A stretch of DNA of 63,566 nucleotides, the filler included, from an uncultured Myxococcia bacterium (lineage in GTDB: Bacteria > CAZTWC01): NCBI GenBank assembly GCA_964617105.1. It is 3 parts of 3 records of this genome, joined end to end, with 100 filler letters (N's around TTAATTAATTAA, not from the genome) between each part and the next. Parts side by side here need not be neighbours in the genome. Positions count along the whole stretch, not along the records: positions 13,138 to 43,539 come from CAZTWC010000010.1; 2 more parts are not named here. One strand, 5' to 3'. Numbering within the stretch: the stretch's first letter is position 1; every line of letters starts with the position of its first letter. A model generated the notes under the pieces. That model saw nothing but the letters and a program-made list of their open reading frames with translations. It was not told the DNA's origin and searched no databases. Position numbers and translations under genes: made by a program. Shown piece after piece: positions 25,037 to 37,817 of this stretch.

Positions 25037-27154
25037 TTACTCTTTGCGCTCAAGCGCGTTAGCTGGTTGGATTTTGGCCGCCAGGTAGGCTGGATAGAGG
25101 GTTGAAACAACGCTGACCAGGGAGATCGTTACAATACCAAGAACAATATGTCGGATCTCCGCGGTAGGGTAAAGCCGGGGACCAGAAAACAGAAAAACCA
25201 GCACGTTGTGAACCGCCGGCAATCCGATTTGCTCCAAATAAAAGATCAGCAGCCACCCCAGCAGGGCTCCTATGCCACCGGCCAATAGACCCAAAAAGAT
25301 AGTTTCCAGCAAAAACAGCAGCAACACAAAACGGGCCTGGGCACCAATGGCCCGCATAGTGCCAATCTCAGTGACTCTCTCCATGGTGGCCATAATCATG
25401 GAGTTGTTGATAATAACCAAAGCCACCAGGAAGATAATGAAAATGGTAGTATAGAGTACTATCCGCACAACGGTAATAAACTGTCCAACAATGCCAGAGG
25501 CCTTTCTCCAGTCGATTACCTGGATACCCAATTGTTTTTTTCTATTTATCCGGTTGATCTCTTCCATGGTTTCAGCCAGGCGGTTTGGATCTTTTAGGAT
25601 AATAGCAGCGTTGAGAAACATCCCCTGTTCCACCTCTTCCTGAGAATAGGTAATCTCTTCAATTGGCTGGCCAGAAGCAGTATTTTTTGAGAGGTCGGGA
25701 AAATCAACAAATTCATCGAATTCAATGCTGTCAGTGGCAGAGATCAGGCTTTCTTCCTGTCCATCCTGTCCAAACAAGGAATCTTCTGCATTTTCCCGGT
25801 TGATATCCTTTACTCCCACCTCCAGGCGGATCGATTCCAGTTCCTGCAAATCTTCTTTACTCATTTTTCCGAACAGTTCCCGGAAAGTTACCAGGTCGGT
25901 AAGGTTAAAAGCGCCGGCTAAATCTGACTTCTCTATCCCCTTAAAACTGAAAGTACCATACACTTTTACGTTAGCCGCTTTGATATAACCGCTTTTCGTG
26001 TAAGTCCGCAAGGTGATGGTGTCACCCACGTTAAAGAAATATAGTTTGATTTTGGGTGCTATTACTTTATAAAAAAAGTGGTAACGATCTTTAATGGTAT
26101 GATCATCCACCAATAAAAATTTTTCGATTAATTGGTTGAGGCTAAGGTCTTTATTTTTTAAAAATTCCTGCAATTCTTTTTTTATCAAGTCAGCATCATC
26201 AGGACTTATTTGAAAGGATATTTTTTTGTAGAGTTTGGCATTTCGTTTTATTTTGGCCTGCAAAATTGGATCTTTGGATATTTTTTTTCCATTTTTTGTC
26301 ACAGCATTAAAGAGTTTATCTAATTCCCGGGCCACTTTGTTTTTTATCCACTTGTCCAGAAAGCCCTGGTTAAATAGAAGACCTTTTTTGCCTTTGGGCA
26401 CCATCTGACCACGTTTAATATAAAAACGGTCGAATTTTTCTTTGAACAGGTGAAGATCAGTGCCTAAAAAGCGCATATAATAGACATTGCCTTCGTAGAG
26501 AAGAGGGGCTACTTCACTTTCTAAAAATTGGAGCGCCATCTCTTGAGAGTTTTTGGATTCCTGGAACTGCTGCCAAAAATCGGGGAGGATTATTTTCTCT
26601 ATTTTGGCCAGATTTTTGGATATTTTTTTTTTGTTCCGGGAAATTTTGGCTAAAAACCGGTATTCCTCTTTCATTTGATTACCGATCTGGAGGATTTTTT
26701 CCTTTTCGGTTGAGGGTATGGTACCTTTCTCCTTTAAACTCTGTCGTAGATTGTCAATGGCCAGGTCCAGGTCGTTGCCAGTGGTGAGCATGGACAGTTG
26801 GATGCCCATGGGAACAATTGATTCAATGTTATCCAGGGTATATAGAGCCTGTTTTATTTTATGAAAATTGGGCAGGGATCCATAATCGTCAGAAGCCATA
26901 AAACCGCTGCCAAAAATAGCCAGTTCATCTTTAGCCTGGCTGGAGTATATCTGCAGATGGCCGGTAACGCTGGAAGTAAGACTCCTGGTCATTGATGTTT
27001 CTATGCTGTCTAAAAGAGAGGAACCTACCACGATTAAAAAGGTACCAAACAATATAATGGAGCCGATGATCATGCTCTTTATTCGCTGGGAGAACATATT
27101 ACGCAGCGCGATCAATAAGGCAACTTTAATGGTAGAAAAAAACATAGATTTCAC
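25037..27154 (-). CDS. FtsX/MacB-type ABC permease with large periplasmic domain
   Basis: IALRNM, ERVTEIGTMRAIG, YPAYLAAKIQP. Confidence 0.88.
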   Translation of the reverse strand: MKSMFFSTIKVALLIALRNMFSQRIKSMIIGSIILFGTFLIVVGSSLLDSIETSMTRSLTSSVTGHLQIYSSQAKDELAIFGSGFMASDDYGSLPNFHKIKQALYTLDNIESIVPMGIQLSMLTTGNDLDLAIDNLRQSLKEKGTIPSTEKEKILQIGNQMKEEYRFLAKISRNKKKISKNLAKIEKIILPDFWQQFQESKNSQEMALQFLESEVAPLLYEGNVYYMRFLGTDLHLFKEKFDRFYIKRGQMVPKGKKGLLFNQGFLDKWIKNKVARELDKLFNAVTKNGKKISKDPILQAKIKRNAKLYKKISFQISPDDADLIKKELQEFLKNKDLSLNQLIEKFLLVDDHTIKDRYHFFYKVIAPKIKLYFFNVGDTITLRTYTKSGYIKAANVKVYGTFSFKGIEKSDLAGAFNLTDLVTFRELFGKMSKEDLQELESIRLEVGVKDINRENAEDSLFGQDGQEESLISATDSIEFDEFVDFPDLSKNTASGQPIEEITYSQEEVEQGMFLNAAIILKDPNRLAETMEEINRINRKKQLGIQVIDWRKASGIVGQFITVVRIVLYTTIFIIFLVALVIINNSMIMATMERVTEIGTMRAIGAQARFVLLLFLLETIFLGLLAGGIGALLGWLLIFYLEQIGLPAVHNVLVFLFSGPRLYPTAEIRHIVLGIVTISLVSVVSTLYPAYLAAKIQPANALERKE

Positions 27155-27840
27155 CCAGCATCGATTTCAGTGATTTTGCCGTCCAAAAGTTTAATGATCC
27201 GGTTAGCGTGCTCCATCACCTTGGTGTCATGGGTGGAGAAGATAAAGGTGGTTTTGCTTTCAAGGTTGATCTTTTTCATCAGTTCAATAATGTTCAAACC
27301 GGTGGCTGAGTCCAGGTTGGCAGTTGGTTCATCGGCCAAAACTATATTTGGGGTACCTACCAGGGCTCTGGCAATGGCAACCCTTTGCCGTTGTCCACCG
27401 GAAAGTTCATTGGGTCTTTGATATGTTTGATCCTGCAGCCCCACTTTTTCCACCATGTCCAGCACCATCCGTCTCCGCTCCTCTTTGCTGTAACTCCCTT
27501 GCAGTAAAAGGGGAAATTCTACATTTTGATAGAGGTTTAAAACCGGGATCAGATTGAAATTTTGAAATATAAAGCCCAGTTTGTGGAGCCGCAATTCGGT
27601 AAGAGCCCGGTCGCTCAACTCCTGGGTGGACTGGTTATCGATCAGCACCTCTCCATGGGAGGGTTTGTCCATACAGCCTATTAGGTTCAACAGGGTGGTT
27701 TTGCCACTACCCGAAGGTCCCATAATAACTGTAAATTCACCCTCCATGATCTCCATGCTGATCTCTTTTAAAGCGTTAACCGTTAACTTACCCAAAGGGT
27801 AGTCTTTGGAAACCTTGGATAAACTGACTATTGCCGTCAT
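27151..27840 (-). CDS. LolD/MacB-like ABC transporter ATP-binding protein
   Basis: GPSGSGKTT, LSGGQRQRVAIARAL, DEPTANLD; start MTAIV. Confidence 0.93.
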   Translation of the reverse strand: MTAIVSLSKVSKDYPLGKLTVNALKEISMEIMEGEFTVIMGPSGSGKTTLLNLIGCMDKPSHGEVLIDNQSTQELSDRALTELRLHKLGFIFQNFNLIPVLNLYQNVEFPLLLQGSYSKEERRRMVLDMVEKVGLQDQTYQRPNELSGGQRQRVAIARALVGTPNIVLADEPTANLDSATGLNIIELMKKINLESKTTFIFSTHDTKVMEHANRIIKLLDGKITEIDAG

Positions 27841-28055
27841 TTGGTTATTTCCTTTGGGCTCACGCAAAGTTATTTTTAAATGAGCCGTAGTTTTGAGCTT
27901 GACCATTAATATATGCTCATGTTTATATATTACTCTTGTTTTTTGTCAACATAAGATGCTTTTGATAACCATAACTCTTGGTTGGTAAGCATTGTTAATT
28001 ACTATACATTCTGCGAATATTAAGTGCAGAAAATAAATTTTGGGAGGTATAATAC

Positions 28056-29459
28056 ATGTCTCTAACTTCGATCCTGGTAATAGCAGGTGCCATAACGGTT
28101 TTTTTGGCTTTTATTTTACTTCTAATGGCAAAGTTTTACTGCAAAGTAGGACCCAACCAGGTATTGGTTATATCCGGAGGTCGCAAGAGGACAGTGGAAG
28201 ATGTTGATGGCCGGGTTAAGAAAGTTGGGTACCGGCTTCATTTGGGAGGTGGTACTTTTCTTCTTCCTTTTATAGAAAAGGCTGACACACTTCCCTTAGA
28301 TGTGGTGGATTTGCCGGTCAAAACTCCAGAGGTACTTACCAGCGAAGGGGTTCCTATCATGGTAGATGCTACTGCCCAAGTTAAAGTAAAAAGCGATGAT
28401 CAATCTATACGCAAGGCAGCGGAACAATTTTTGGCCTGTGGGATAGAGGGGATCCGCAAGGTGGCTGGTAATGTGATTGAAGGGCAGGTGCGCTCTCTGA
28501 TTGGAACCAAAAGGGCAGTTGAAATTTTTCGGGGTAGACGGGAGTTTGGCGAGGACCTGGAAAAATTGGCGCAAAAAGATTTTGACAAGATGGGATTGGA
28601 ACTTATCTCCTTTGCTCTGAAAGATATTTCTGACAACCAGGGGTATTTGGAATCCATGGGTAAACCAGAAATTGCCGCGGTCAAAAGAGATGCAACGGTG
28701 GCCCAGGCTGAAGCAGAAAAAGATGCTTTGATAAAATCGGCTGAAGCCAAAAAATTAGGTGATATTGCCAAACTGAAGGCCGAGGCGGAGATCGCCAAAA
28801 TCGCCTGGGAAAACGATGCCAAAAAATCTATGTCTCAGATGGAAGTTCACAAAGTAAAGGCCAAGGCAGATCTCTCCTACGATCTGGAGCGTTATAAGGT
28901 CTCCCAAGAGGTGAAACGAGAGGAATATAACGTCAAGCGGATAGAGAAGGAGGAGGCCATCAAGGTGGAGGAGCAGGAGGTACTGCGTAAGGAGAAAGAA
29001 TTGGAGGCTACGGTGGTAAAACCGGCGCAGGCCAGGAAACTGCAGGAACAGGCTGAGGCTGATGCCCAATATTACCGGATGGGTGCGGAGTCAAGAAGCC
29101 GGGCAACGGCTATTAAGGCGGAGGGGGAGGCCAATGCCGACAAGACTCGCCTGCAAGGAGAGGCAGAAGCGGAAGCTATGCATAAAAAAGCCCAGGCCTG
29201 GAGCAATTACAATCAAGCCGCCATTTATCAAATGGTAATGGATGTTTTGCCAGAGTTGGCCAAATCGGTATCAGAACCCTTGTCAAAGGTTGATAAAATA
29301 GTGGTTTTCGGTGGTCAAAACGGAGACTTAGGAACCTCAAAAGTAACCAGAGAGGTTTCTAATATTCTCACTCAATTGCCCGACTTGGTGGAGGCTATGA
29401 CCGGCGTTGATATCAAAAAGATTTTACAGGATAAACTACAGCAAACTGAAGAGGAATAG
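28056..29459 (+). CDS. Flotillin (SPFH + coiled-coil) protein
   Basis: N-terminal TM, SPFH domain, AEA-rich repeats, EPLSKVDKI, LTQLP..VEAMTGVD. Confidence 0.92.
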   Translation: MSLTSILVIAGAITVFLAFILLLMAKFYCKVGPNQVLVISGGRKRTVEDVDGRVKKVGYRLHLGGGTFLLPFIEKADTLPLDVVDLPVKTPEVLTSEGVPIMVDATAQVKVKSDDQSIRKAAEQFLACGIEGIRKVAGNVIEGQVRSLIGTKRAVEIFRGRREFGEDLEKLAQKDFDKMGLELISFALKDISDNQGYLESMGKPEIAAVKRDATVAQAEAEKDALIKSAEAKKLGDIAKLKAEAEIAKIAWENDAKKSMSQMEVHKVKAKADLSYDLERYKVSQEVKREEYNVKRIEKEEAIKVEEQEVLRKEKELEATVVKPAQARKLQEQAEADAQYYRMGAESRSRATAIKAEGEANADKTRLQGEAEAEAMHKKAQAWSNYNQAAIYQMVMDVLPELAKSVSEPLSKVDKIVVFGGQNGDLGTSKVTREVSNILTQLPDLVEAMTGVDIKKILQDKLQQTEEE

Positions 29460-29461
29460 AG

Positions 29462-31813
29462 ATGTCTTTAGCGGAAAGAGCTAGAAGGATCGACCCTTCC
29501 GTCACTTTGAAAATCTCGGCCAGGGCCAGCGCCATGAAAAGGGAAGGGAAAGATATCATCGACCTTAGTGTGGGTGAACCAGATTTCGCTACTCCTGAAA
29601 ATATCAAAGAAGCCGGTAAAATGGCCATAGACACTAATTTTACCAAATACACTCCCTCCAGCGGTATCTTGGAGTTAAAAGAGGCAATTGTGGAAAAATT
29701 CAGGCTGGACCACCAGGTGAGGTATAGCCCCTCGCAAATATTGGTGTCAGCCGGAGCCAAGATGTGTCTTTACACTCTCTGTCAGGCTTTGTTGGATGAG
29801 GGTGACGAGGTGATAATCCCGTCTCCTTATTGGGTTTCCTATCCTGAAATGACTAAAATGGCCGGAGCCGAACCGGTTTATGTGCAGACCGAAGAAGAGA
29901 ATAATTTTTTGCTCACTCCCACCCAATTTAAGGACCATGTTTCTACTAATACCAAGGCTATTTTCTTAAATAACCCAGTAAATCCTACTGGCGCCGGTTA
30001 TTCCCGGCACCAGTTGATGGAAATAGCGGAAGTGGCTCTTCAAGAGGATATTTATGTTATTGCCGATGAAATATACGAGAAACTGATCTATGATGATTTC
30101 TCTTTTTGTTGTTTTGCCAGCCTGGGAGATGATGTAAAGGCAAAAACCATTGTTATCAACGGAGTGTCCAAAGCCTATTCTATGACCGGATGGAGGATAG
30201 GATACGCGGCCGGCCCGGAAGAGATAATCAGTGCCATGAGCAAGATCCAGTCTCACAGCACCTCTAACCCCTGTTCCATTGCTCAGAAAGCCAGCGTGGA
30301 AGCGATTTTGGGGCCCCAGGGAAAGATTTCCCAGATGAGGGCGGAATTTCAAAAAAGGCGCAACTATTTAATTCAAAAACTGGGTTCAATTCCCCATGTT
30401 TCCTGCTCTGAACCCCAGGGTGCCTTTTACCTGTTTCCCAATTTGTCGCATTACTATAACAAAGTTTATAAGGGCAGAGAGATAAGAAATTCTCATGGAC
30501 TGGCTTTCTACCTGTTAAACCAGGCTCAAGTAGCCATAGTTCCAGGCGCGGCTTTTGGAGATGATCGCTATATTCGCATCTCCTATGCAACTTCTATGGA
30601 CCTTTTAGAAAAAGCCATGGAGCGGATTTGCGGTGCTTTGCAGTTATTAAAGACCCCGTCTAAAGTAAAGAAGATGACTCTGGCCAATACCAATACCAGA
30701 TCGCAACAGCAGGTTTCCCTTGAGGAGATTTCCCAGGAGATGCGCAATGCTTTGGTGGCTGAGGCTGAGGCCCACCTCCATTTTCATAATTATTACGAGT
30801 GGAACGCCAATATCAGCGGCGTGGTAGTGCAACTACGAACTAATATTGCCCACCTCTACAATTTTTGGCAGGAAAATTGGTATCCTGCCCAGTTGGAAAC
30901 AGACCTGGAGCCTCATGCTATTGTTTACGCAGTGGGATCTGTAACCGGACGACAGGGACACGCTTTTTACAATTCAGATACCAAAACCGCGGTGCTATTT
31001 AACCAGGATTTTTACCAGCAATTGCGCTCTATAGCGTTAGGAGTGGTGGCAGATGTGGTGGAGCAATTGTTTGGAGTGCACCTGGTAAGAGGGATGGGAT
31101 TGGAAATTAACGGCCGGGGAGTTTTATTGCTTGCGCCTGGGGGCACGGGTAAATTCCGGCTGCTGTTCGACTTACTGAAGTGTTCAGATAAGGGGCGTCT
31201 TCTTTCGTTGGATGCTCTGTTTGTCAGGTATAACCGAAATCAGGTTTGGGCTGAAAACGGGGAGAGAAAACTCTATTTACCCACCAGATCAGTGGAGTCT
31301 TATGAAAAATTTGCTCCTCTTTTTGACCGGGGTAAAACTGAAAATGTGGTCAGCCTTTTAAGTGAATGCACAGATTTGGAATGTAAGCAGAAAGATATCT
31401 GTCGCCTGGATCGCGGCTCACCTTATTGCTTCAAGGCATCTAAGAGTTCTTATGCTCTTTTAGACCCCTATTGGCTGGGCGGAACCGAAAAGTATTGCAA
31501 AAGGAGTCCAATAGATACGGTTCTGCTGCTAAAGCGGGATCAGACCTCTCCTCCATTGGTTCCATGCCGGGAGGATGACGCTGTGCATATATTGGAATCT
31601 GGGGGAAACTCTGGTTTGCCAATAGGGTATGGCCAGGAATCGGAAACAGGCAGCGGACAGTTTTTTAACCCCCATTTGCTGGTTAAATCGTCCCGGCGGC
31701 TGGAATGGCAGAAACAGGCTTTTATCCAACTTTTCCAAGGCACCAAATGTTATCAGGTTAATACCGGTGCTTCCAGGGAACAATTACTGGAGCGGTTAAA
31801 AGAGATCTTGTGA
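29462..31813 (+). CDS. Aspartate aminotransferase (class I) fused to a C-terminal PEPCK/HPrK-fold P-loop domain
   Basis: aa 1-~395: GEPDF, DEIY, SKAYSMTGWRIG, RISYA; aa ~400-783: APGGTGK, ENV, FNPHLL, VNTG collinear with PEPCK motifs. Confidence 0.85.
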   Translation: MSLAERARRIDPSVTLKISARASAMKREGKDIIDLSVGEPDFATPENIKEAGKMAIDTNFTKYTPSSGILELKEAIVEKFRLDHQVRYSPSQILVSAGAKMCLYTLCQALLDEGDEVIIPSPYWVSYPEMTKMAGAEPVYVQTEEENNFLLTPTQFKDHVSTNTKAIFLNNPVNPTGAGYSRHQLMEIAEVALQEDIYVIADEIYEKLIYDDFSFCCFASLGDDVKAKTIVINGVSKAYSMTGWRIGYAAGPEEIISAMSKIQSHSTSNPCSIAQKASVEAILGPQGKISQMRAEFQKRRNYLIQKLGSIPHVSCSEPQGAFYLFPNLSHYYNKVYKGREIRNSHGLAFYLLNQAQVAIVPGAAFGDDRYIRISYATSMDLLEKAMERICGALQLLKTPSKVKKMTLANTNTRSQQQVSLEEISQEMRNALVAEAEAHLHFHNYYEWNANISGVVVQLRTNIAHLYNFWQENWYPAQLETDLEPHAIVYAVGSVTGRQGHAFYNSDTKTAVLFNQDFYQQLRSIALGVVADVVEQLFGVHLVRGMGLEINGRGVLLLAPGGTGKFRLLFDLLKCSDKGRLLSLDALFVRYNRNQVWAENGERKLYLPTRSVESYEKFAPLFDRGKTENVVSLLSECTDLECKQKDICRLDRGSPYCFKASKSSYALLDPYWLGGTEKYCKRSPIDTVLLLKRDQTSPPLVPCREDDAVHILESGGNSGLPIGYGQESETGSGQFFNPHLLVKSSRRLEWQKQAFIQLFQGTKCYQVNTGASREQLLERLKEIL

Positions 31814-31873
31814 CCGCGCGGTTGAAGTTTCAATCTTAATATATATATTAATGTAATAGGTAGGTCGAAAACC

Positions 31874-33709
31874 ATGTATGATCAAAACGCGTATGACCGA
31901 TTTGCCAGGGAACTGAAGCATTTGATCAAAGGACCAAACATCAAACCGGTCAGCCTTAAATGGCTAAAAAAACAGGCAGGGATTACGGCCACCAAAACTA
32001 AAAATGGCAGTTGGGGATGGCGTTCTGCGGTTTCCAGTCGTATTGGCCCCAAGACTGTTTATTTGGGCGAAGAGCAGGTCAGGCTGCCGAAACCTTCCGA
32101 ACTACATAAAGATATTATCAGCAAAGCCCCCCAGCAATTGGAAAAAGTAATCCATTTACTAAGGACCTTACCTTTTTATTTGATCAGAAGGCGGATGGGC
32201 GAAAATGATATTTTTAACCCTTTTTGTAATCTGTTGGTCAGCGCAGCCTGCCTGAAAAATTACCGGCTAGGCTATATGTGGTCCAATACGGTTTTTAAAC
32301 CAGATAAGAGGCCTGGTCCAGAATTTTTTATGGTCCATATTCCCGAGGAGCACCAACTACGCCAGCAGGTGCTGGCTATGCCCCAGCACAATATCAACAT
32401 TGCCATGGGTTCCGATTACATGGGGGAGGATAAAAAGGGCTTTTTGCGCCAGGCCATGTGGCGGGCCGACCAAATGGGCATGGTAGGACTCCATGCCGGC
32501 ACCAAGATAGTTATGGCCAGAGATATTAAAACTGGCCAGATCAAAAAGTATGGGGTATTTCTATTTGGACTGAGTGCAACCGGAAAATCAACCTGGTCAT
32601 GCCACCAACTGGGTTTAAACTGGGACGATGGTGAACGTACCGAGGTGATACAGGATGACATCGTCTTTTTAAGAAAAGATGGCTCCGCCCTGGGCAGTGA
32701 AAACGGTTTTTTTGTTAAAACCGATGTGCACCAAGATCAGCAAGAGGCTATGTATTATGCCCTTAGTCATAAAACAGCCCTGTTAGAGAATGTTATGATA
32801 AATGCTAAGGGCGAGGTGGATTTTCTCGACGAAAGCCTTTGCGGCAATGGTCGCTCGGTGATCAGACGAAAAGAGTTAAAAATTAAACGAAATAATCGTT
32901 TAATGCCTATCTATAGTTCCAGCATTAATTTGCCGCCTTTAGAGGAGTTGGATGGATTGGTATTTGCCTTTATCACCAGGCGTAATACCATCATGTCCTT
33001 TGCTCAGGAGTTGAATCCACAGCAGGCGGTGTTGGCCTATTTATGGGGGGAATCTTCCCATAGTTATGCTTCCAATCCTGCCAAGGCTGGAGAATCTGTG
33101 CGCACGGTGGGCACAGATCCTTTTATAGTCGGTTCCAGGGCTGTCAAGGTAAATCGGTTTTACGACATCATTATGGATCTATATGAGCGTTTTCCCGACA
33201 AAGTCAAGTTCATGCAATACAACACCGGCGGTATTGGCGAGATTATCAATATTTTTCAGGATGGAGAAAAGAGAGTAAAGAAGTTGGTCAGAAAAGTGGA
33301 GAGAGTGCCCCTTAGTTTGATGTCCGCCATTCAGAGGGGTGATTTGCGGGGAACCAATACCTATACCAGGGGGATGCTTGGCACCAGGGATATTGTCCAG
33401 TGTGAAGGGAAAAGTATGAGCGAATATTCTTCCCAAAACTACTATAGCCAGGAACAGATAGACCAGTATATTGTAGATTTGGTGGAAGGGCGTCGAAAAT
33501 ATACTCAGGAGATCGCTTCTGAGGGTTTGCGGCAGGAGGTAATTCAGGCAGCAGAGAAATCTTTTGTCATTTCCGATAAAGTTTCTAAGGGCATATTGAC
33601 TTCAAAAGCCAGCCAGGATGAACCAGAACCTGAACAACATAAACCGGTACCAGGCCGGTTAAGCAGCATTGCCAGGCCCAAAAGGGGCTCTGGTTGGCGT
33701 TATGGGTGA
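31874..33709 (+). CDS. pckA: Phosphoenolpyruvate carboxykinase (ATP), divergent type
   Basis: YMGEDKKG, LHAG, GLSATGKST, QDD, GSENGFFVKT, LENV, NGR, GTDPF, NTG. Confidence 0.8.
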   Translation: MYDQNAYDRFARELKHLIKGPNIKPVSLKWLKKQAGITATKTKNGSWGWRSAVSSRIGPKTVYLGEEQVRLPKPSELHKDIISKAPQQLEKVIHLLRTLPFYLIRRRMGENDIFNPFCNLLVSAACLKNYRLGYMWSNTVFKPDKRPGPEFFMVHIPEEHQLRQQVLAMPQHNINIAMGSDYMGEDKKGFLRQAMWRADQMGMVGLHAGTKIVMARDIKTGQIKKYGVFLFGLSATGKSTWSCHQLGLNWDDGERTEVIQDDIVFLRKDGSALGSENGFFVKTDVHQDQQEAMYYALSHKTALLENVMINAKGEVDFLDESLCGNGRSVIRRKELKIKRNNRLMPIYSSSINLPPLEELDGLVFAFITRRNTIMSFAQELNPQQAVLAYLWGESSHSYASNPAKAGESVRTVGTDPFIVGSRAVKVNRFYDIIMDLYERFPDKVKFMQYNTGGIGEIINIFQDGEKRVKKLVRKVERVPLSLMSAIQRGDLRGTNTYTRGMLGTRDIVQCEGKSMSEYSSQNYYSQEQIDQYIVDLVEGRRKYTQEIASEGLRQEVIQAAEKSFVISDKVSKGILTSKASQDEPEPEQHKPVPGRLSSIARPKRGSGWRYG

Positions 33710-33769
33710 TTAGTTGCCCGGAGGGGCTCTAGTTGGCAATTTTATAGGATTTATTTATAGGATTATCTA

Positions 33770-34414
33770 ATGGAAATAATTTTTAGATCGATAAAAAGCC
33801 TGGAAAATCAAATAGATAGTTTTCTGGATGCAGTCAGTGAGGGTGCCCTGATCTTTGAAGAGGGGATAAAAAAGTATGTGGAAGAGGATTGGAAAACCTT
33901 TGAAGAAATTATTGCGGCTATAAATATTCTGGAGAATCGAGCCGATGATATGCGCCGTATTGTGGAGGGGGAGTTATACAGCCACACTTTGATCCCGGAA
34001 TCGCGCGGTGATGTTCTTGGTTTGCTTGAAACCATGGACAATGTTATTGATACGTCCAAAAAGACTCTCTCTACCTTTAATATCGAGCATCCTGAAATTC
34101 CAATCGAACTACGCAAAGATTTTATTGACCTGGCCAGTAAGTCCACCATGGCCACCCAGGAGTTGGTTATGGCGGCTCGCGCATTTTTCAAGGATGTGGC
34201 CGCGATTAAAAATTATTTGCACAAGGTGATTTTTTACGAAAAGGAGGCAGATAGGGTAGAGGAGAAATTAAATACTGAAATTTTTTCCTCAGATCTTGAC
34301 CTGGCCCAAAAAATGCACCTCCGCTATTTTACCTTCCTAATAGCCAGAGTATCTGATCAGGCCGAAGGTGTTGCTGATCGCCTAAGGATATACGCCATAA
34401 AACGCTCCGTATAA
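33770..34414 (+). CDS. DUF47/PhoU-like phosphate transport regulator
   Basis: ENRADD, EKEAD, SDQAE..AD helical motifs; upstream of a PiT gene. Confidence 0.9.
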   Translation: MEIIFRSIKSLENQIDSFLDAVSEGALIFEEGIKKYVEEDWKTFEEIIAAINILENRADDMRRIVEGELYSHTLIPESRGDVLGLLETMDNVIDTSKKTLSTFNIEHPEIPIELRKDFIDLASKSTMATQELVMAARAFFKDVAAIKNYLHKVIFYEKEADRVEEKLNTEIFSSDLDLAQKMHLRYFTFLIARVSDQAEGVADRLRIYAIKRSV

Positions 34415-34416
34415 CC

Positions 34417-34479
34417 TTAAGAATGTGGATGCATCTCGGCTAACGGCGCCTTGTTATCCGAGCGCCTCCACATTCTTAA
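34417..34479. repeat. Internally deleted copy of the 892-1014 palindromic element
   Basis: TTAAGAATGTGGA...TCCACATTCTTAA outer stem enclosing GCATCTCGGCTAAC joined to GGCGCCTTGTTATCCGAGCGC. Confidence 0.8.
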
Positions 34480-34639
34480 CTTATTCGATGCTTTCCGCTT
34501 AACTGCCGCCGTAGGTGATCCCTTTTGGATGTTGCCGTCCGCGCCAAAGAACTCAGTGTTATCAATAACATATACAAGACATGCGAAGTTAAATATTGGT
34601 GATTTTTTAGCCTGCTATTGCTTTGGGAATTCATATTAG

Positions 34640-34790
34640 CGGCCCCGACTATTCAGCGATTGAACAAAGCGGAAAGAAAAACATTCCAATTATTCACTCG
34701 CTGAACAATCCAGGAGATGCCCAGAGCCAAACATTCAATCGCTGAATAGTCGGGGCCGGGGTCAGCGCAAAGAAGAGTTCAACGACTGAA
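34640..34790. repeat. Phased TTCA-N5-TGAA palindrome array with a perfect 25-bp inverted repeat
   Basis: Units start at 34652, 34693, 34734, 34778; 34640-34664 is the exact reverse complement of 34734-34758. Confidence 0.85.
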
Positions 34791-34925
34791 TAGTCGCCAC
34801 GGGCGGCCCCGTTGCTGCGTCATAATTTTGTCGCTGTTTTAAATGCTCGGTAAAATAATTTTATTTACTTTTTTTATGTGTTATGCTTTGCTGAGATTAA
34901 CGGTTTAATATCAGGAGGTTATCTT

Positions 34926-36404
34926 TTGCTAACAATATTATTTTTATCCAGTGGATTATTTTTAGGGTGGTCCCTGGGTGCCAATGACGCTGCCAATATA
35001 TTTGGAACAGCGGTAGGAACCCGGATGATTAAATTCAGGACCGCTGCTATACTGTGTTCTATTTTTGTTATAATAGGGGCTGTAATAGGAGGGGAGGGTG
35101 CTTCACATACTCTGGGCAAACTTGGCTCGATTAATGCCATGGCGGGTTCATTTATGGTGGCTTTTTCCGCTGCTTTCACAATATTTTGGATGACCAGATT
35201 AAAACTTCCGGTTTCTACTTCACAAGCCATTGTGGGCGCCATAATAGGCTGGAATTTTTTTTCCGGTAATCTTACCGACACCAGGTCTTTGGCCAAAATT
35301 GTTCTCACCTGGTTCTTGTGTCCCTTTTTAGCCGCTATTTTTGCAGTGCTTCTCTATTGGATGGCAAAAACTTATTTGTCCAAGATTAAACTTCACCTAT
35401 TGCGCCTTGATTGGTATACCCGAATAATGCTTTGTCTGGTCGGCATTTTCGGCGCCTATAGCCTGGGGGCCAACAATATTGCCAATGTTATGGGTGTGTT
35501 TATACACTCCACCCCCTTTGCTGACCTGCAAATATGGTCTCTATCACTTAGCAAAGCCCAGCAACTGTTTTTTCTCGGCAGTATAGCCATTGCAGTTGGG
35601 GTTTTTACCTATTCCTACCGCGTAATGACCACGGTAGGAAACGAAATATTTAAGTTATCTCCCATAACCGCCCTGGTAGTGGTACTATCCGAAGCACTGG
35701 TATTGTTTATCTTTGCGTCCGAGGGGTTGGAGCATTGGCTGGTGTCTAACCATCTTCCTGCTTTACCCCTGGTCCCAGTTTCCAGTTCCCAGGCTGTAAT
35801 TGGCGCAGTAGTGGGCATTGCGCTTATCAAGGGCGGCAGTGGATTTAAATACCGGTTATTGGGAGAGATTGGCGCTGGCTGGGTTGCAACCCCGGTGGTA
35901 GCGGGAATAATGGCTTTTTTTTCTCTTTTTTTTCTGCAAAATGTTTTTCACCAGCAGGTTTACAAACCGGTCCAATATCAACTCTCACCTCCAGTTTTAA
36001 AAAAATTGCATCAGCAGGGAATATACACCGGAAAAATGCCCTTTTTGCAGGAGAAAAAGTTTAACAAAGCCACCGACCTTTATCACCAACTGCTTAAGAA
36101 TCATCTATGCAGCAAGGAGGAGGCGCTGGAGGTGGTTAAGTTTTCCAAAATCGAATCAATTTCGGTTGATACCTCGCGGTTGCAGAAAAATAACATTGAG
36201 TTTTTGAGCAAAGAGCAATTAAAGGCGGTAATCAGTTTGGCGGGAAAGTCCTTTTATCACCGGTGGCAGTTTCATGCTGCTTTGGTGAAAATTACTCCGG
36301 AATGGAATCTAAAAGAGGAAAATATTTTAAATAAGCGTTACAATCGTGAGATAAAAGGGAAACTAAACTATCTTAATCGTCTGTTGTCGGTTCAAGCGCG
36401 TTGA
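34926..36404 (+). CDS. PiT-family inorganic phosphate transporter with C-terminal soluble extension
   Basis: GANDAAN, PVSTSQAIVG, GANNIAN, PVSSSQAVIG; AGGAGG RBS before TTG 34926. Confidence 0.92.
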   Translation: MLTILFLSSGLFLGWSLGANDAANIFGTAVGTRMIKFRTAAILCSIFVIIGAVIGGEGASHTLGKLGSINAMAGSFMVAFSAAFTIFWMTRLKLPVSTSQAIVGAIIGWNFFSGNLTDTRSLAKIVLTWFLCPFLAAIFAVLLYWMAKTYLSKIKLHLLRLDWYTRIMLCLVGIFGAYSLGANNIANVMGVFIHSTPFADLQIWSLSLSKAQQLFFLGSIAIAVGVFTYSYRVMTTVGNEIFKLSPITALVVVLSEALVLFIFASEGLEHWLVSNHLPALPLVPVSSSQAVIGAVVGIALIKGGSGFKYRLLGEIGAGWVATPVVAGIMAFFSLFFLQNVFHQQVYKPVQYQLSPPVLKKLHQQGIYTGKMPFLQEKKFNKATDLYHQLLKNHLCSKEEALEVVKFSKIESISVDTSRLQKNNIEFLSKEQLKAVISLAGKSFYHRWQFHAALVKITPEWNLKEENILNKRYNREIKGKLNYLNRLLSVQAR

Positions 36405-36440
36405 TAAAGGCCCATCTGCTGCTAGTCCTTATAAAATCAA

Positions 36441-37817
36441 TCAGGGCACTTTTCCCTGAATTCTCAGGGTACCAAAATCGCCACCATCATCACCATCACC
36501 ACCGGCCATAATAATGGCAGTAGTAGCGGCTCCTCCGACCACAGCCGCACCAATAGTCCACACCCACCATTTTTTATACCAGGGCTTTTCTGGGAGTCTC
36601 TCCAGTTTGATATCCACCAGGTTGGTATAAGGCGATATTACCACAAAGGGCATCTCAAACTCTCGGAACCCATTGGCTACCACTCGAATATTGTGGCGTC
36701 CCTCCAGGAGGTTATCGATAGTCTCCTGATAGGTTTTTAGGTAATTTCCATCTAAATAGATCCTGGCTTTGGCTGGAGTTACCCGTAGTTTGATTTGACC
36801 ATGTTCTTTTTCTTTGGGCATATTTTCTTTTTCCATCAAGTAGCGGGCCAGGAACTTGACATATAATTTGAGATTAAAGAGATTGCCGGGCCAAAATTGG
36901 TGTAATCTCTTTTCCACGGAAAGTCCGGCAGTAACGTTTATCAGTTGGATATTTATTTCAAACCCATGCAGTTTGTGGTTGACGGTAAAAATTACCATGT
37001 AATCTATTTCCACCGATCTGGCCAGGTTTACCAGGCAGGAATCGTCCTTGCATCCCCTCATCAATTCCTCACCCGTATTTTCCAGACGCTTGTAAAGATC
37101 TTCCACTCCAATAACCCAATATTTACGATTAGCACCAATCTCCTCTTTGATGGAGAGCCCCAACTCTTTTTCTATTTTTTTATCCAGAGTGGAGCACTTA
37201 AAGGGCGCCACTACCACCGAGGAGGCTGATAAGTTGTCACTAACATTTTTGTTTTCAGCCGGGATTCCCAGGATATCGGGAAAGAAAAGTTTTCCCACCA
37301 TCAGGTTGATCGCCATACTGATCTCCTCCAGCCCACCTACCACTTTGCGGCTTATTTTTCTTTTGATATCGGGTTGACTTAAATTGATAACCATCAGATG
37401 GATTATGTAAGTCTTTTCACTTTTTTCCAACATTTTGTCAGTTTTATCATCAGGAGATTCTACCATCAGATTGATAAGCCGGTTTACTTGCAGTTTTTCA
37501 CCAATCGCCTTGAAACAATCAATTTTTGGGCCGCAGTTCTGAGCAGTGGCGATTTCAGACTTACTGACCAGAGACAGTATATCCAGATCGGTTATAAGTT
37601 CGAATAGTTGAAGTTTATCCACTTCGCTGATCAAAAAAGTGTTGATTGTAAAAGCCAACTCTTTTCCAAGGTTGTAACCAGCCACTGGCAAAACAGCGAC
37701 TTTTTCTTTAGTCTGGGCCATTGCCAGCCTGGTTGACCAGGTCAGGCAGAGCAATATTATCAGGGTCAATAACAGGGTTGAGCAAATATAGGTGTGAATT
37801 TTTTTTCCCATAATCAT
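36441..37817 (-). CDS. Secreted PEGA-domain protein with tandem N-terminal domains and C-terminal membrane anchor
   Basis: Signal peptide; PEGA-like VTPAKARIYLDG..GRHNIRVVANG; PWYKKWWVW followed by TM. Confidence 0.75.
   Translation of the reverse strand: MIMGKKIHTYICSTLLLTLIILLCLTWSTRLAMAQTKEKVAVLPVAGYNLGKELAFTINTFLISEVDKLQLFELITDLDILSLVSKSEIATAQNCGPKIDCFKAIGEKLQVNRLINLMVESPDDKTDKMLEKSEKTYIIHLMVINLSQPDIKRKISRKVVGGLEEISMAINLMVGKLFFPDILGIPAENKNVSDNLSASSVVVAPFKCSTLDKKIEKELGLSIKEEIGANRKYWVIGVEDLYKRLENTGEELMRGCKDDSCLVNLARSVEIDYMVIFTVNHKLHGFEINIQLINVTAGLSVEKRLHQFWPGNLFNLKLYVKFLARYLMEKENMPKEKEHGQIKLRVTPAKARIYLDGNYLKTYQETIDNLLEGRHNIRVVANGFREFEMPFVVISPYTNLVDIKLERLPEKPWYKKWWVWTIGAAVVGGAATTAIIMAGGDGDDGGDFGTLRIQGKVP

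Follow-up and report, generated by a model that had tools for sequence, protein, structure and literature searches.

The stretch of DNA analyzed here (the window; 63,566 nucleotides, filler included) comes from an uncultured Myxococcia bacterium (GenBank assembly GCA_964617105.1). Within the part taken from record CAZTWC010000010.1 lie three co-directional open reading frames (ORFs) on the plus strand, encoding a flotillin-type protein (28056..29459; 467 aa), an aspartate aminotransferase (AspAT) fused to a C-terminal domain derived from phosphoenolpyruvate carboxykinase (PEPCK) (29462..31813; 783 aa), and a divergent ATP-type PEPCK (31874..33709; 611 aa). The flotillin stop codon is 2 nt before the ATG of the fusion gene, and 60 nt separate the fusion from the PEPCK gene. 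The latter two ORFs lie where a preliminary description of this DNA had placed them. The fusion frame is genuine: a stop or frameshift was looked for near position 30650 and none was found, and 78 of the 80 related genome loci closest to the query (75 with downstream and 74 with upstream sequence) carry the fusion ORF, with a median length of 783 aa. Metagenome contigs from runs X1 and X2, possibly from the source sample and hence not independent, bridge the domain junction with 0 differences, and marine and seawater metagenome contigs cover the stretch without differences. A scan of positions 27700 to 36600 for promoters and terminators yielded sites no more numerous than in shuffled sequence.

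The N-terminal part of the fusion (aa 1 to 398; 29462..30655, plus strand) is a class Ib AspAT with an intact pyridoxal phosphate (PLP) site. Fusion residues 30 to 389 match PF00155 over profile positions 1 to 361 of 361 (E value, 9e-78), and the nearest solved relatives are the class Ib enzymes 5wmh, an Arabidopsis AspAT/prephenate aminotransferase (E value, 2.4e-105), and 1bkg from Thermus (E value, 2.7e-91), which the 398 residues match over their full length. The PLP-lysine motif GVSKAYSMTGWR is found at aa 234 to 245, together with NNPVNPTG (aa 170 to 177), ADEIY (aa 201 to 205), SK(237)AYSMTGWR, and YIRISYA (aa 370 to 376), with K237, N174-P-T-G, D202/Y205, and R372 all present. We therefore agree with the earlier identification of a full class I AspAT that retains its PLP lysine, and the protein presumably works as a dimeric aspartate aminotransferase. 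Its exact substrate range is inferred, as the best NCBIfam matches are all aspartate transaminases but none reaches its equivalog cutoff (the best, NF004769, scores 418.7 bits against a cutoff of 617). The solved class Ib AspATs listed have 382 to 475 residues and match the AspAT part alone from end to end, whereas the fusion adds a second domain.

This C-domain (aa 401 to 783 of the fusion, numbered here as residues 1 to 383; 30662..31810, plus strand) has no match in Pfam or NCBIfam, and neither PF01293 nor any NCBIfam PEPCK model was found at an E value of ≤1. In alignment A2, which holds 40 C-domains (that of the window and 39 relatives), 39 of the 40 likewise lack a Pfam or NCBIfam match, the window's among them, and none matches PF01293 at an E value of ≤0.01. 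An AlphaFold2 (AF2) model of aa 401 to 783, built on 42 sequences (pLDDT, 84.4; pTM, 0.84), nevertheless has a PEPCK fold. The best 50 Foldseek matches listed were all PEPCKs (ATP type, E value of about 1e-14; TMq, 0.63 to 0.68), and VIA-align paired the model with ATP-PEPCK over 333 residues (Z score, 27.2; root mean square deviation, 2.9 Å), bearing out the fold proposed in the preliminary description. The two-lobed fold is shared with the PckA-type enzymes (PF01293) of structures 1j3b, 1aq2, and 1ii2, with about 335 residues aligned at Z scores of 24 to 27; model residues 4 to 383 correspond to Escherichia coli PckA residues 51 to 463, and the C-domain has no counterpart for roughly 50 residues at the start and 75 at the end of E. 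coli PckA.

Direct sequence comparisons were insufficient to establish this relationship. A BLASTP comparison of the C-domain with the neighboring PEPCK was not significant (E value, 0.53), nor was the corresponding hhalign comparison (probability, 11.7%; E value, 0.0025), though it was collinear over 162 columns; the C-domain had no significant match in the PDB by BLASTP or by profile search, and a global hhalign of alignment A2 against alignment A3 gave nothing useful. A profile of 17 stand-alone relatives of the domain, however, matched the family of the neighboring PEPCK with 97% probability (E value, 8.6e-11) over 356 columns. Because of the AF2-based fold matches and this profile link, the C-domain is a shortened, or mini-, PEPCK, homologous to PEPCK and with its fold in both lobes. 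All motif pairs quoted in the preliminary description are present and collinear between the C-domain and the neighboring PEPCK, and the order of motifs (P-loop, Asp, E..T, ENV, NTG) is that of ATP-PEPCK. The C-domain differs from ATP-PEPCK in being about 160 residues shorter and below all Pfam and NCBIfam thresholds, in carrying an added Cys-rich insertion, and in sitting behind an aminotransferase.

HPr kinase/phosphorylase (HPrK/P) and PEPCK are members of the same P-loop superfamily, and weak sequence likeness to HPrK/P was seen near the C-domain P-loop (PDB 1knx; E value of 0.31 with the single sequence and 0.049 with the profile). One of the 40 members of A2 has a subthreshold match to the HPrK C-terminal domain PF07475 (E value, 4.5e-4), and subthreshold PF07475 matches also occur in the stand-alone relatives. 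In contrast to an HPrK-like C-lobe, the C-domain model aligns across both PEPCK lobes; HPrK/P entries were absent from the best 50 VIA rows listed, and no HPr-related gene context was seen. A subunit of the Euglena respiratory supercomplex (PDB 8iuf, chain E2) also aligns to the model (Z score, 20.8; 279 residues) and may be a PEPCK-fold protein in a structural role.

We take the Mn ligands of E. coli PEPCK to be K213, H232, and D269 and its substrate-binding residues to be R333, Y207, and R65; the other positions compared are presumably the first Lys (K212) and the Asp pair (D268/D269). At the position of Y207, the stand-alone relatives have Tyr, the fused clade mostly Asn, and the window F117. 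The position of K212 is Lys in the stand-alone relatives and invariantly Arg122 in the fused clade (R122 in the window); that of K213 is Ser in the stand-alone relatives and Ser123 in the fused clade, window included (S123); and that of H232 is His (IHG) in the stand-alone relatives and invariantly Arg143 in the fused clade (R143 in the window). The Asp pair is DD in the stand-alone relatives, N-D in the fused clade, and L183-D184 in the window. The substrate Arg (R333) is kept in the stand-alone relatives (NSR), is mostly His in the fused clade, and is Y264 in the window, and no conserved Arg equivalent to R65 was found in the N-terminal part of the C-domain. The E..T and ENV motifs are kept in the stand-alone relatives, the fused clade, and the window alike.

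In the window, on the plus strand, the former Lys-pair/His region reads DFYQQLRS (R122 and S123) and VHLVRGM (R143) (31007..31096; hhalign and three-way alignment), with K187/K188 of the neighboring PEPCK corresponding to R122/S123 and H207 to R143. His140 was considered as the equivalent of the catalytic His and was ruled out by the three-way alignment, in which the equivalent is Arg143. In LSLDALFVR (31202..31228), the second Asp of the DD pair alone is left (D184), and in KSSYALLDPYW (31442..31474), Y264 occupies the position of the Arg of NSR in stand-alone relatives and NGR in PEPCK. The equivalents of the three Mn ligands are thus S123, R143, and D184, of which only the Asp is retained, and the Lys pair, the His, the first Asp, and the substrate Arg and Tyr of ATP-PEPCK are all replaced.

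The P-loop is GTGKST in the stand-alone relatives, GP.GTKKT in the fused clade, and APGGTGKF in the window (residues 158 to 165; 31133..31156, plus strand). The Walker A pattern G....GK[ST] is broken: the window lacks the first Gly and the Ser/Thr, and its relatives keep the Lys-Thr, but most have Lys in place of Gly. K164 is invariant, residue 165 is Thr in 39/39 relatives and Phe in the window, and G158 has become Ala in the window. Of the losses listed in the preliminary description, that of the Walker A Ser/Thr is confined to the window's copy; the others (both Lys residues, the His, an Asp, and the Arg) hold clade-wide. This copy departs from its family at 31 positions that are ≥90% conserved elsewhere, including G158A, H181L, C226T, and H278Y.

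The domain is nonetheless under strong constraint, and therefore it is not a decaying remnant: the 40 C-domains, from several phyla, share 63 invariant columns. Many polar or charged residues are invariant, including R122, R143, K164, R189, E201, R202, K203, T208, E227, N228, D268, and R281. The most conserved block, EWNAN..QLRTN..H..FW.ENWYPAQ (residues 46 to 77; 30797..30892, plus strand; invariant columns in alignments A1 and A2), is common to bacterial-fused, archaeal-fused, and stand-alone forms. The Cys-rich insertion C236-x4-C241-x5-C247-x8-C256 (31364..31429, plus strand) is modeled with lower confidence (pLDDT, 61 to 76); C236 and C247 are invariant, and in Bacteroidota-type members, C241 is replaced by His and C256 is shifted to position 259. 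This Cys-to-His exchange suggests that the insertion is probably a structural metal (Zn) site. The tail past G369 has no conserved residue in the family; it matches the region that we take to form the adenine pocket of E. coli PEPCK, which argues against base-specific nucleotide binding.

Homologues of the C-domain are numerous (786 at an E value of ≤1e-3), and among the 120 matches listed, nearly all are fusions of ~780 aa. Relatives are encoded in 346 species genomes, including those of Aminicenantes, Ignavibacteria, Bacteroidota, KSB1, Calditrichaceae, Fischerbacteria, and Desulfaltia. An exhaustive profile search returned 259 cluster representatives at an E value of ≤1e-3, including stand-alone proteins of 355 to 415 aa. 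Six of these (P0128, P0131, P0134, P0137, P0141, and P0154) keep YYGQCKS, IHG, GTGKST, HSDD, and NSR, and by these motifs they look like active enzymes. The named stand-alone members come from metagenome-assembled genomes of Dehalococcoidia and Omnitrophota, and similar clusters in the ESM Atlas are assigned to Nitrososphaerota and Bathyarchaeota. Long forms of 530 to 570 aa (P0179, P0182, P0215, P0233, and P0239) make up a further clade (support, 100/100); their motifs are canonical, and they carry a large additional segment, either an insertion or an extension. Another long-form relative, P0216 (754 aa), contains an intein (PF14890; E value, 1.5e-16) at residues 216 to 393, inside the P-loop between GTGKS and the next Thr, a position which hints that the P-loop may matter in that branch.

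A second kind of fusion was found in archaea. Protein P0138 (899 aa) has a mini-PEPCK domain at residues 12 to 325 and a full PF01293 domain at residues 371 to 850; its N-terminal half is 28% identical to the C-domain of the window (E value, 2e-45), and its PEPCK half is 40% identical to the neighboring PEPCK (E value, 9e-123). A search with the N-terminal part returned 104 proteins, namely 16 AspAT fusions and 88 PEPCK-bearing clusters (e.g., P0138 and P0271 to P0357, annotated as PEPCK). Nearly all of the latter are ~880 to 940 aa long, with mini-PEPCK followed by PEPCK in a single chain, and their sources are Hod-, Hel-, Loki-, and Freyarchaeota (Asgard), Bathyarchaeia, Altiarchaeota, Hydrothermarchaeales, and a few bacteria. 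These proteins unite in one polypeptide, and in the same order, the domain and the PEPCK clade that adjoin each other in the window, which favors a physical association between the two. Of 80 archaeal-type metagenome loci, 41 encode the mini-domain and PEPCK as a single reading frame; in the other 39, this PEPCK clade occurs with no mini-domain in the locus, and 32 of these include 1.1 kb or more of sequence upstream. AspAT or flotillin genes were found near none of the 80, and clustering of their neighbors found no conserved gene. An AF2 model of P0138 (alignment A4; pLDDT, 79.9; pTM, 0.64), which came without a predicted aligned error map, does not decide whether the halves pack.

In a maximum-likelihood tree of 49 domains, rooted at the midpoint only, the bacterial-fused and archaeal-fused clades are each monophyletic (100/100 for both) and are sisters, though not strongly supported (86/85), nested among the stand-alone forms; the C-domain of the window is the first branch within the bacterial clade (94/88). 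Both fused clades share the hallmark WNAN..QLRTN..FW.ENW block and the replacements of Lys by Arg122, His by Arg143, Arg by His/Tyr264, and DD by xD, and these shared changes fit a single origin of the remodeled domain. The archaeal domain differs from that of the window in being joined to PEPCK rather than AspAT, and it has no Cys insertion, no ENV motif, and no Lys in the P-loop. It can hardly be pictured as an enzyme.

The PEPCK next to the fusion (31874..33709, plus strand) is an intact, divergent ATP-type enzyme, as had been proposed. It scores 85.7 bits against PF01293 (cutoff, 26.5) and 278 bits against NF006821, under the cutoff of 369. All catalytic motifs examined are kept: R56, Y182, K187, K188, H207, K238, S239, D261, D262, R327, and the P-loop GLSATGKST are invariant in 28 orthologues, and by these motifs, it is predicted to be a working ATP-PEPCK. 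It is 53 to 69% identical to the PEPCK neighbors of the fusion in other phyla. PEPCK is found directly 3' of the fusion in 62 of the 75 loci that extend downstream; 1 further locus has it at another place, and 12 lack it (5 of the 80 loci were undeterminable).

A class sample of 151 genomes from the class around G007 placed this linkage in perspective. The fusion occurs in 62 of the 151, and only 19 of these 62 have the close ATP-PEPCK, always adjoining the fusion; no genome has it without the fusion. The linkage anticipated in the preliminary description is therefore real at the level of loci, but it does not extend to most fusion genomes of the class sample. Of the other 43 fusion genomes, 40 carry a GTP-type PEPCK (PF00821), hundreds of kilobases away or on another contig. 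Some PEPCK is thus present in 59 of 62 fusion genomes versus 15 of the 89 without the fusion (9 with GTP-PEPCK and 6 with a distant ATP-PEPCK). Smaller genome-level checks agree with the class-sample counts for PEPCK and flotillin. The fusion goes with having some PEPCK, and its ATP-PEPCK neighbor is common but replaceable. The ATP and GTP types are nearly complementary among fusion genomes, with both in just 4, where at least 2 of the GTP matches are fragments, and the pattern looks like nonorthologous replacement within one class. In four genomes of 1.9 to 2.0 Mb without the fusion (G016, G022, G028, and G033), the distant ATP-PEPCK matches each contain one in-frame TGA, which may merely reflect read-through past the true stop where the match ends.

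The closest gene partner of the fusion is the flotillin gene, which the preliminary description had missed. The encoded SPFH protein (28056..29459, plus strand) has an N-terminal membrane segment and matches Band_7 (PF01145; E value, 1.8e-27; 96.9 bits against a cutoff of 23.6) and Flot (PF15975; E value, 4.1e-9; 37 bits against a cutoff of 27). Flotillin lies directly 5' of the fusion in 73 of the 74 loci with upstream sequence (6 of the 80 have none) and 1,136 nt away in the remaining one, compared with an adjacency of 62/75 for PEPCK. In the class sample, a flotillin orthologue is found in 63 of 151 genomes, namely, all 62 with the fusion and G069, in which the contig ends just past the AspAT part, so that the fusion is cut. 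Flotillin and the fusion form a fixed two-gene unit, and flotillin is a tighter partner of the fusion than ATP-PEPCK is. Clustering of the bacterial neighborhoods at the 80 loci found no gene conserved across phyla beyond flotillin and PEPCK.

Rates of change in the C-domain were compared for 60 fusion genes of the class sample, yielding 17 with and 34 without ATP-PEPCK; the comparison left out G115, whose longest frame (559 aa) fell to the length cutoff, and 8 for which an unrelated ORF had been picked (13 to 16% identity). At matched AspAT divergence, the C-domain/AspAT divergence ratio was 1.26 to 1.35 with ATP-PEPCK versus 1.44 to 1.79 without it, with no P value given because the pairs are not independent. 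Sixteen C-domain sites are conserved only with ATP-PEPCK and three only without it, and 94 of the 383 sites are ≥94% identical in both groups, including R122, R143, the P-loop, R189, R202, K203, T208, E227, N228, and the Cys residues. Part of the constraint on the C-domain may thus be tied to ATP-PEPCK, but that on the core is not.

We think it probable, although only slightly so, that the C-domain is a PEPCK-derived pseudoenzyme, that is, a noncatalytic binding or assembly module carried by AspAT at the node between oxaloacetate (OAA) and phosphoenolpyruvate (PEP). In both fused clades, the metal- and substrate-binding set has been exchanged for other, equally conserved residues, and the C-domain most likely no longer interconverts OAA and PEP. 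It would instead probably serve as a binding or assembly module on the presumably dimeric AspAT. Where the ATP-type PEPCK exists, contact with it would link AspAT, which makes or uses OAA, to the OAA-PEP node; PEPCK is a candidate partner because of the archaeal fusion proteins and the gene adjacency. Adjacency and co-occurrence also make the flotillin scaffold a possible contact, and the Arg-rich former active site does the same for a small anionic ligand.

Several points weigh against the pseudoenzyme reading. Of the 62 fusion genomes of the class sample, 43 lack ATP-PEPCK, yet every hallmark residue is kept in them; therefore, the conserved core cannot exist only for docking the paralogue. 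The archaeal fusions have neither flotillin nor AspAT nearby (0/80 loci), and one partner alone does not account for both clades. Conservation also persists at Lys164, Thr165 (in all relatives), Asp184, Glu201, Glu227, and Asn228, and some phosphate or nucleotide chemistry by the C-domain is conceivable. The residue equivalences are taken from profile alignments at about 15% identity (hhalign via the stand-alone relatives and the three-way alignment) rather than from superposed coordinates, and the class-sample counts come from genomes whose completeness is not given and are not phylogenetically independent.

Among the alternatives is strict channeling, in which the C-domain would dock AspAT on the neighboring ATP-PEPCK as a pseudodimer partner so that labile OAA passes directly between the active sites. 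This would account for the adjacency of PEPCK in 62/75 loci, for the 19 close ATP-PEPCK genes of the class sample that all adjoin a fusion, with none found without one, for the same domain order in the archaeal proteins, and for the excess of sites conserved only with ATP-PEPCK (16 versus 3). We regard it as unlikely, however, since the domain is still strongly constrained in the 43 of 62 fusion genomes without this PEPCK, this PEPCK clade occurs without the mini-domain in 32 archaeal-type loci whose upstream sequence spans at least 1.1 kb, and the linkage to flotillin is tighter. The earlier proposal that a pseudo-PEPCK domain docks AspAT on PEPCK is supported by the fold, the residue losses, the adjacency, and the archaeal fusions, of which that description had no knowledge, but it is not supported as a sole or essential role; docking is plausible, but it cannot be the only role of the C-domain. 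A complex prediction for PEPCK (residues 1 to 575) and the C-domain (residues 15 to 383), with alignments as input and controls absent, gave ipSAE values of 0.00 and 0.00 and speaks neither for nor against binding. Somewhat less doubtful, though still tentative, is the idea of an allosteric sensor, the second proposal of the preliminary description, whose remodeled, Arg-rich former active site would tune AspAT by binding a nucleotide or a metabolite that is phosphorylated or dicarboxylic. The basic residues that would line this site are conserved, the domain persists without ATP-PEPCK, and the fusion partner is always an OAA-handling enzyme, AspAT in bacteria and PEPCK in archaea; but in the tail, where the adenine pocket would be expected, no conserved residue follows G369, and a sensor leaves the fixed flotillin partner unexplained.

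It is quite improbable that the C-domain is still an enzyme with non-PEPCK chemistry, which would make it a phosphotransferase, with different ligands or without a metal, whose target is a substrate or product of AspAT or some other small molecule. The many invariant polar or charged residues, from R122 to R281, the P-loop Lys-Thr in 39/39 relatives, the catalytically complete appearance of the stand-alone relatives, and the intein inside the P-loop of one relative, a place typical of functionally important sites, are in keeping with such a role. Set against these are the loss of the equivalents of two of the three Mn ligands and of the substrate Arg and Tyr (assuming their roles in E. coli PEPCK to be as given above), the Lys that replaces Gly before the P-loop Lys in most relatives, the further absence of Thr165 and Gly158 in the window, and an archaeal sister clade without the P-loop Lys and ENV motif. 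Recruitment of AspAT, and with it PEPCK, to a membrane flotillin scaffold by the C-domain would explain why flotillin is adjacent in 73/74 loci across phyla, why the two co-occur perfectly in the 151 genomes (62/62, and in the single additional genome with flotillin, a contig end truncates the fusion), and why only 2 nt separate the genes in the window. Such recruitment is unlikely in our estimation; gene adjacency alone is weak evidence for binding, and none of the 80 loci of the archaeal sister clade has a flotillin gene close by. A wider proposal would join the pseudoenzyme to this scaffold: as a dedicated OAA-node adaptor arisen from stand-alone mini-PEPCK enzymes, it would place AspAT (and ATP-PEPCK where present) on the membrane flotillin scaffold in several bacterial phyla and would act inside PEPCK in Asgard archaea and Bathyarchaeia. 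We advance this with considerable reserve.

Downstream of PEPCK, on the plus strand, are genes for a DUF47/PhoU_div protein (33770..34414; E value, 4.2e-26) and a PHO4/PiT phosphate transporter (34878..36404; E value, 2.5e-58); both are absent from all 80 related loci (tblastn, 1e-8), making this neighborhood specific to the window. On the minus strand, an ABC ATPase and a 705-aa FtsX-type permease (25037..27906) are divergent from the flotillin operon, and a 458-aa protein (36441..37817) has a weak PEGA domain (E value, 5e-4) and a C-terminal membrane segment.

Full-text literature searches, with supplementary files outside their scope, found no description of an AspAT-mini-PEPCK fusion, and within that scope, this agrees with the view in the preliminary description that no such characterized system is known. 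The nearest ESM Atlas clusters of the domain are unnamed or labeled as aminotransferase fragments. The kinds behind the finding (PEPCK superfamily, pseudoenzyme domain, and pathway fusion) are known, and the system is not categorically new. Pseudoenzyme domains paired with active paralogues are a recognized general class, in which, as here, a remodeled copy is kept under selection beside or fused to an active relative. The present case differs in that the copy is attached to another enzyme of its pathway and persists where the paralogue is replaced by a GTP-type PEPCK. For annotation, the finding exposes a gap, as hundreds of proteins are labeled just "aminotransferase," "PEPCK," or "hypothetical," and neither Pfam nor NCBIfam has a model for the domain and its stand-alone relatives.

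OAA is unstable and a major metabolic branch point, and its handover between enzymes is poorly understood. An OAA-handling enzyme permanently joined to a remodeled copy of the next enzyme offers a natural handle on OAA transfer, and the arrangement is conserved across hundreds of uncultured species. Its fixed pairing with flotillin makes the fusion one of the rare candidate clients of a bacterial flotillin to be defined genetically, and if the adaptor proposal were true, it would amount to a flotillin-organized Asp-OAA-PEP metabolon. The arrangement of the flotillin, fusion, and PEPCK genes points to an unstudied organization of the aspartate-oxaloacetate-PEP steps.

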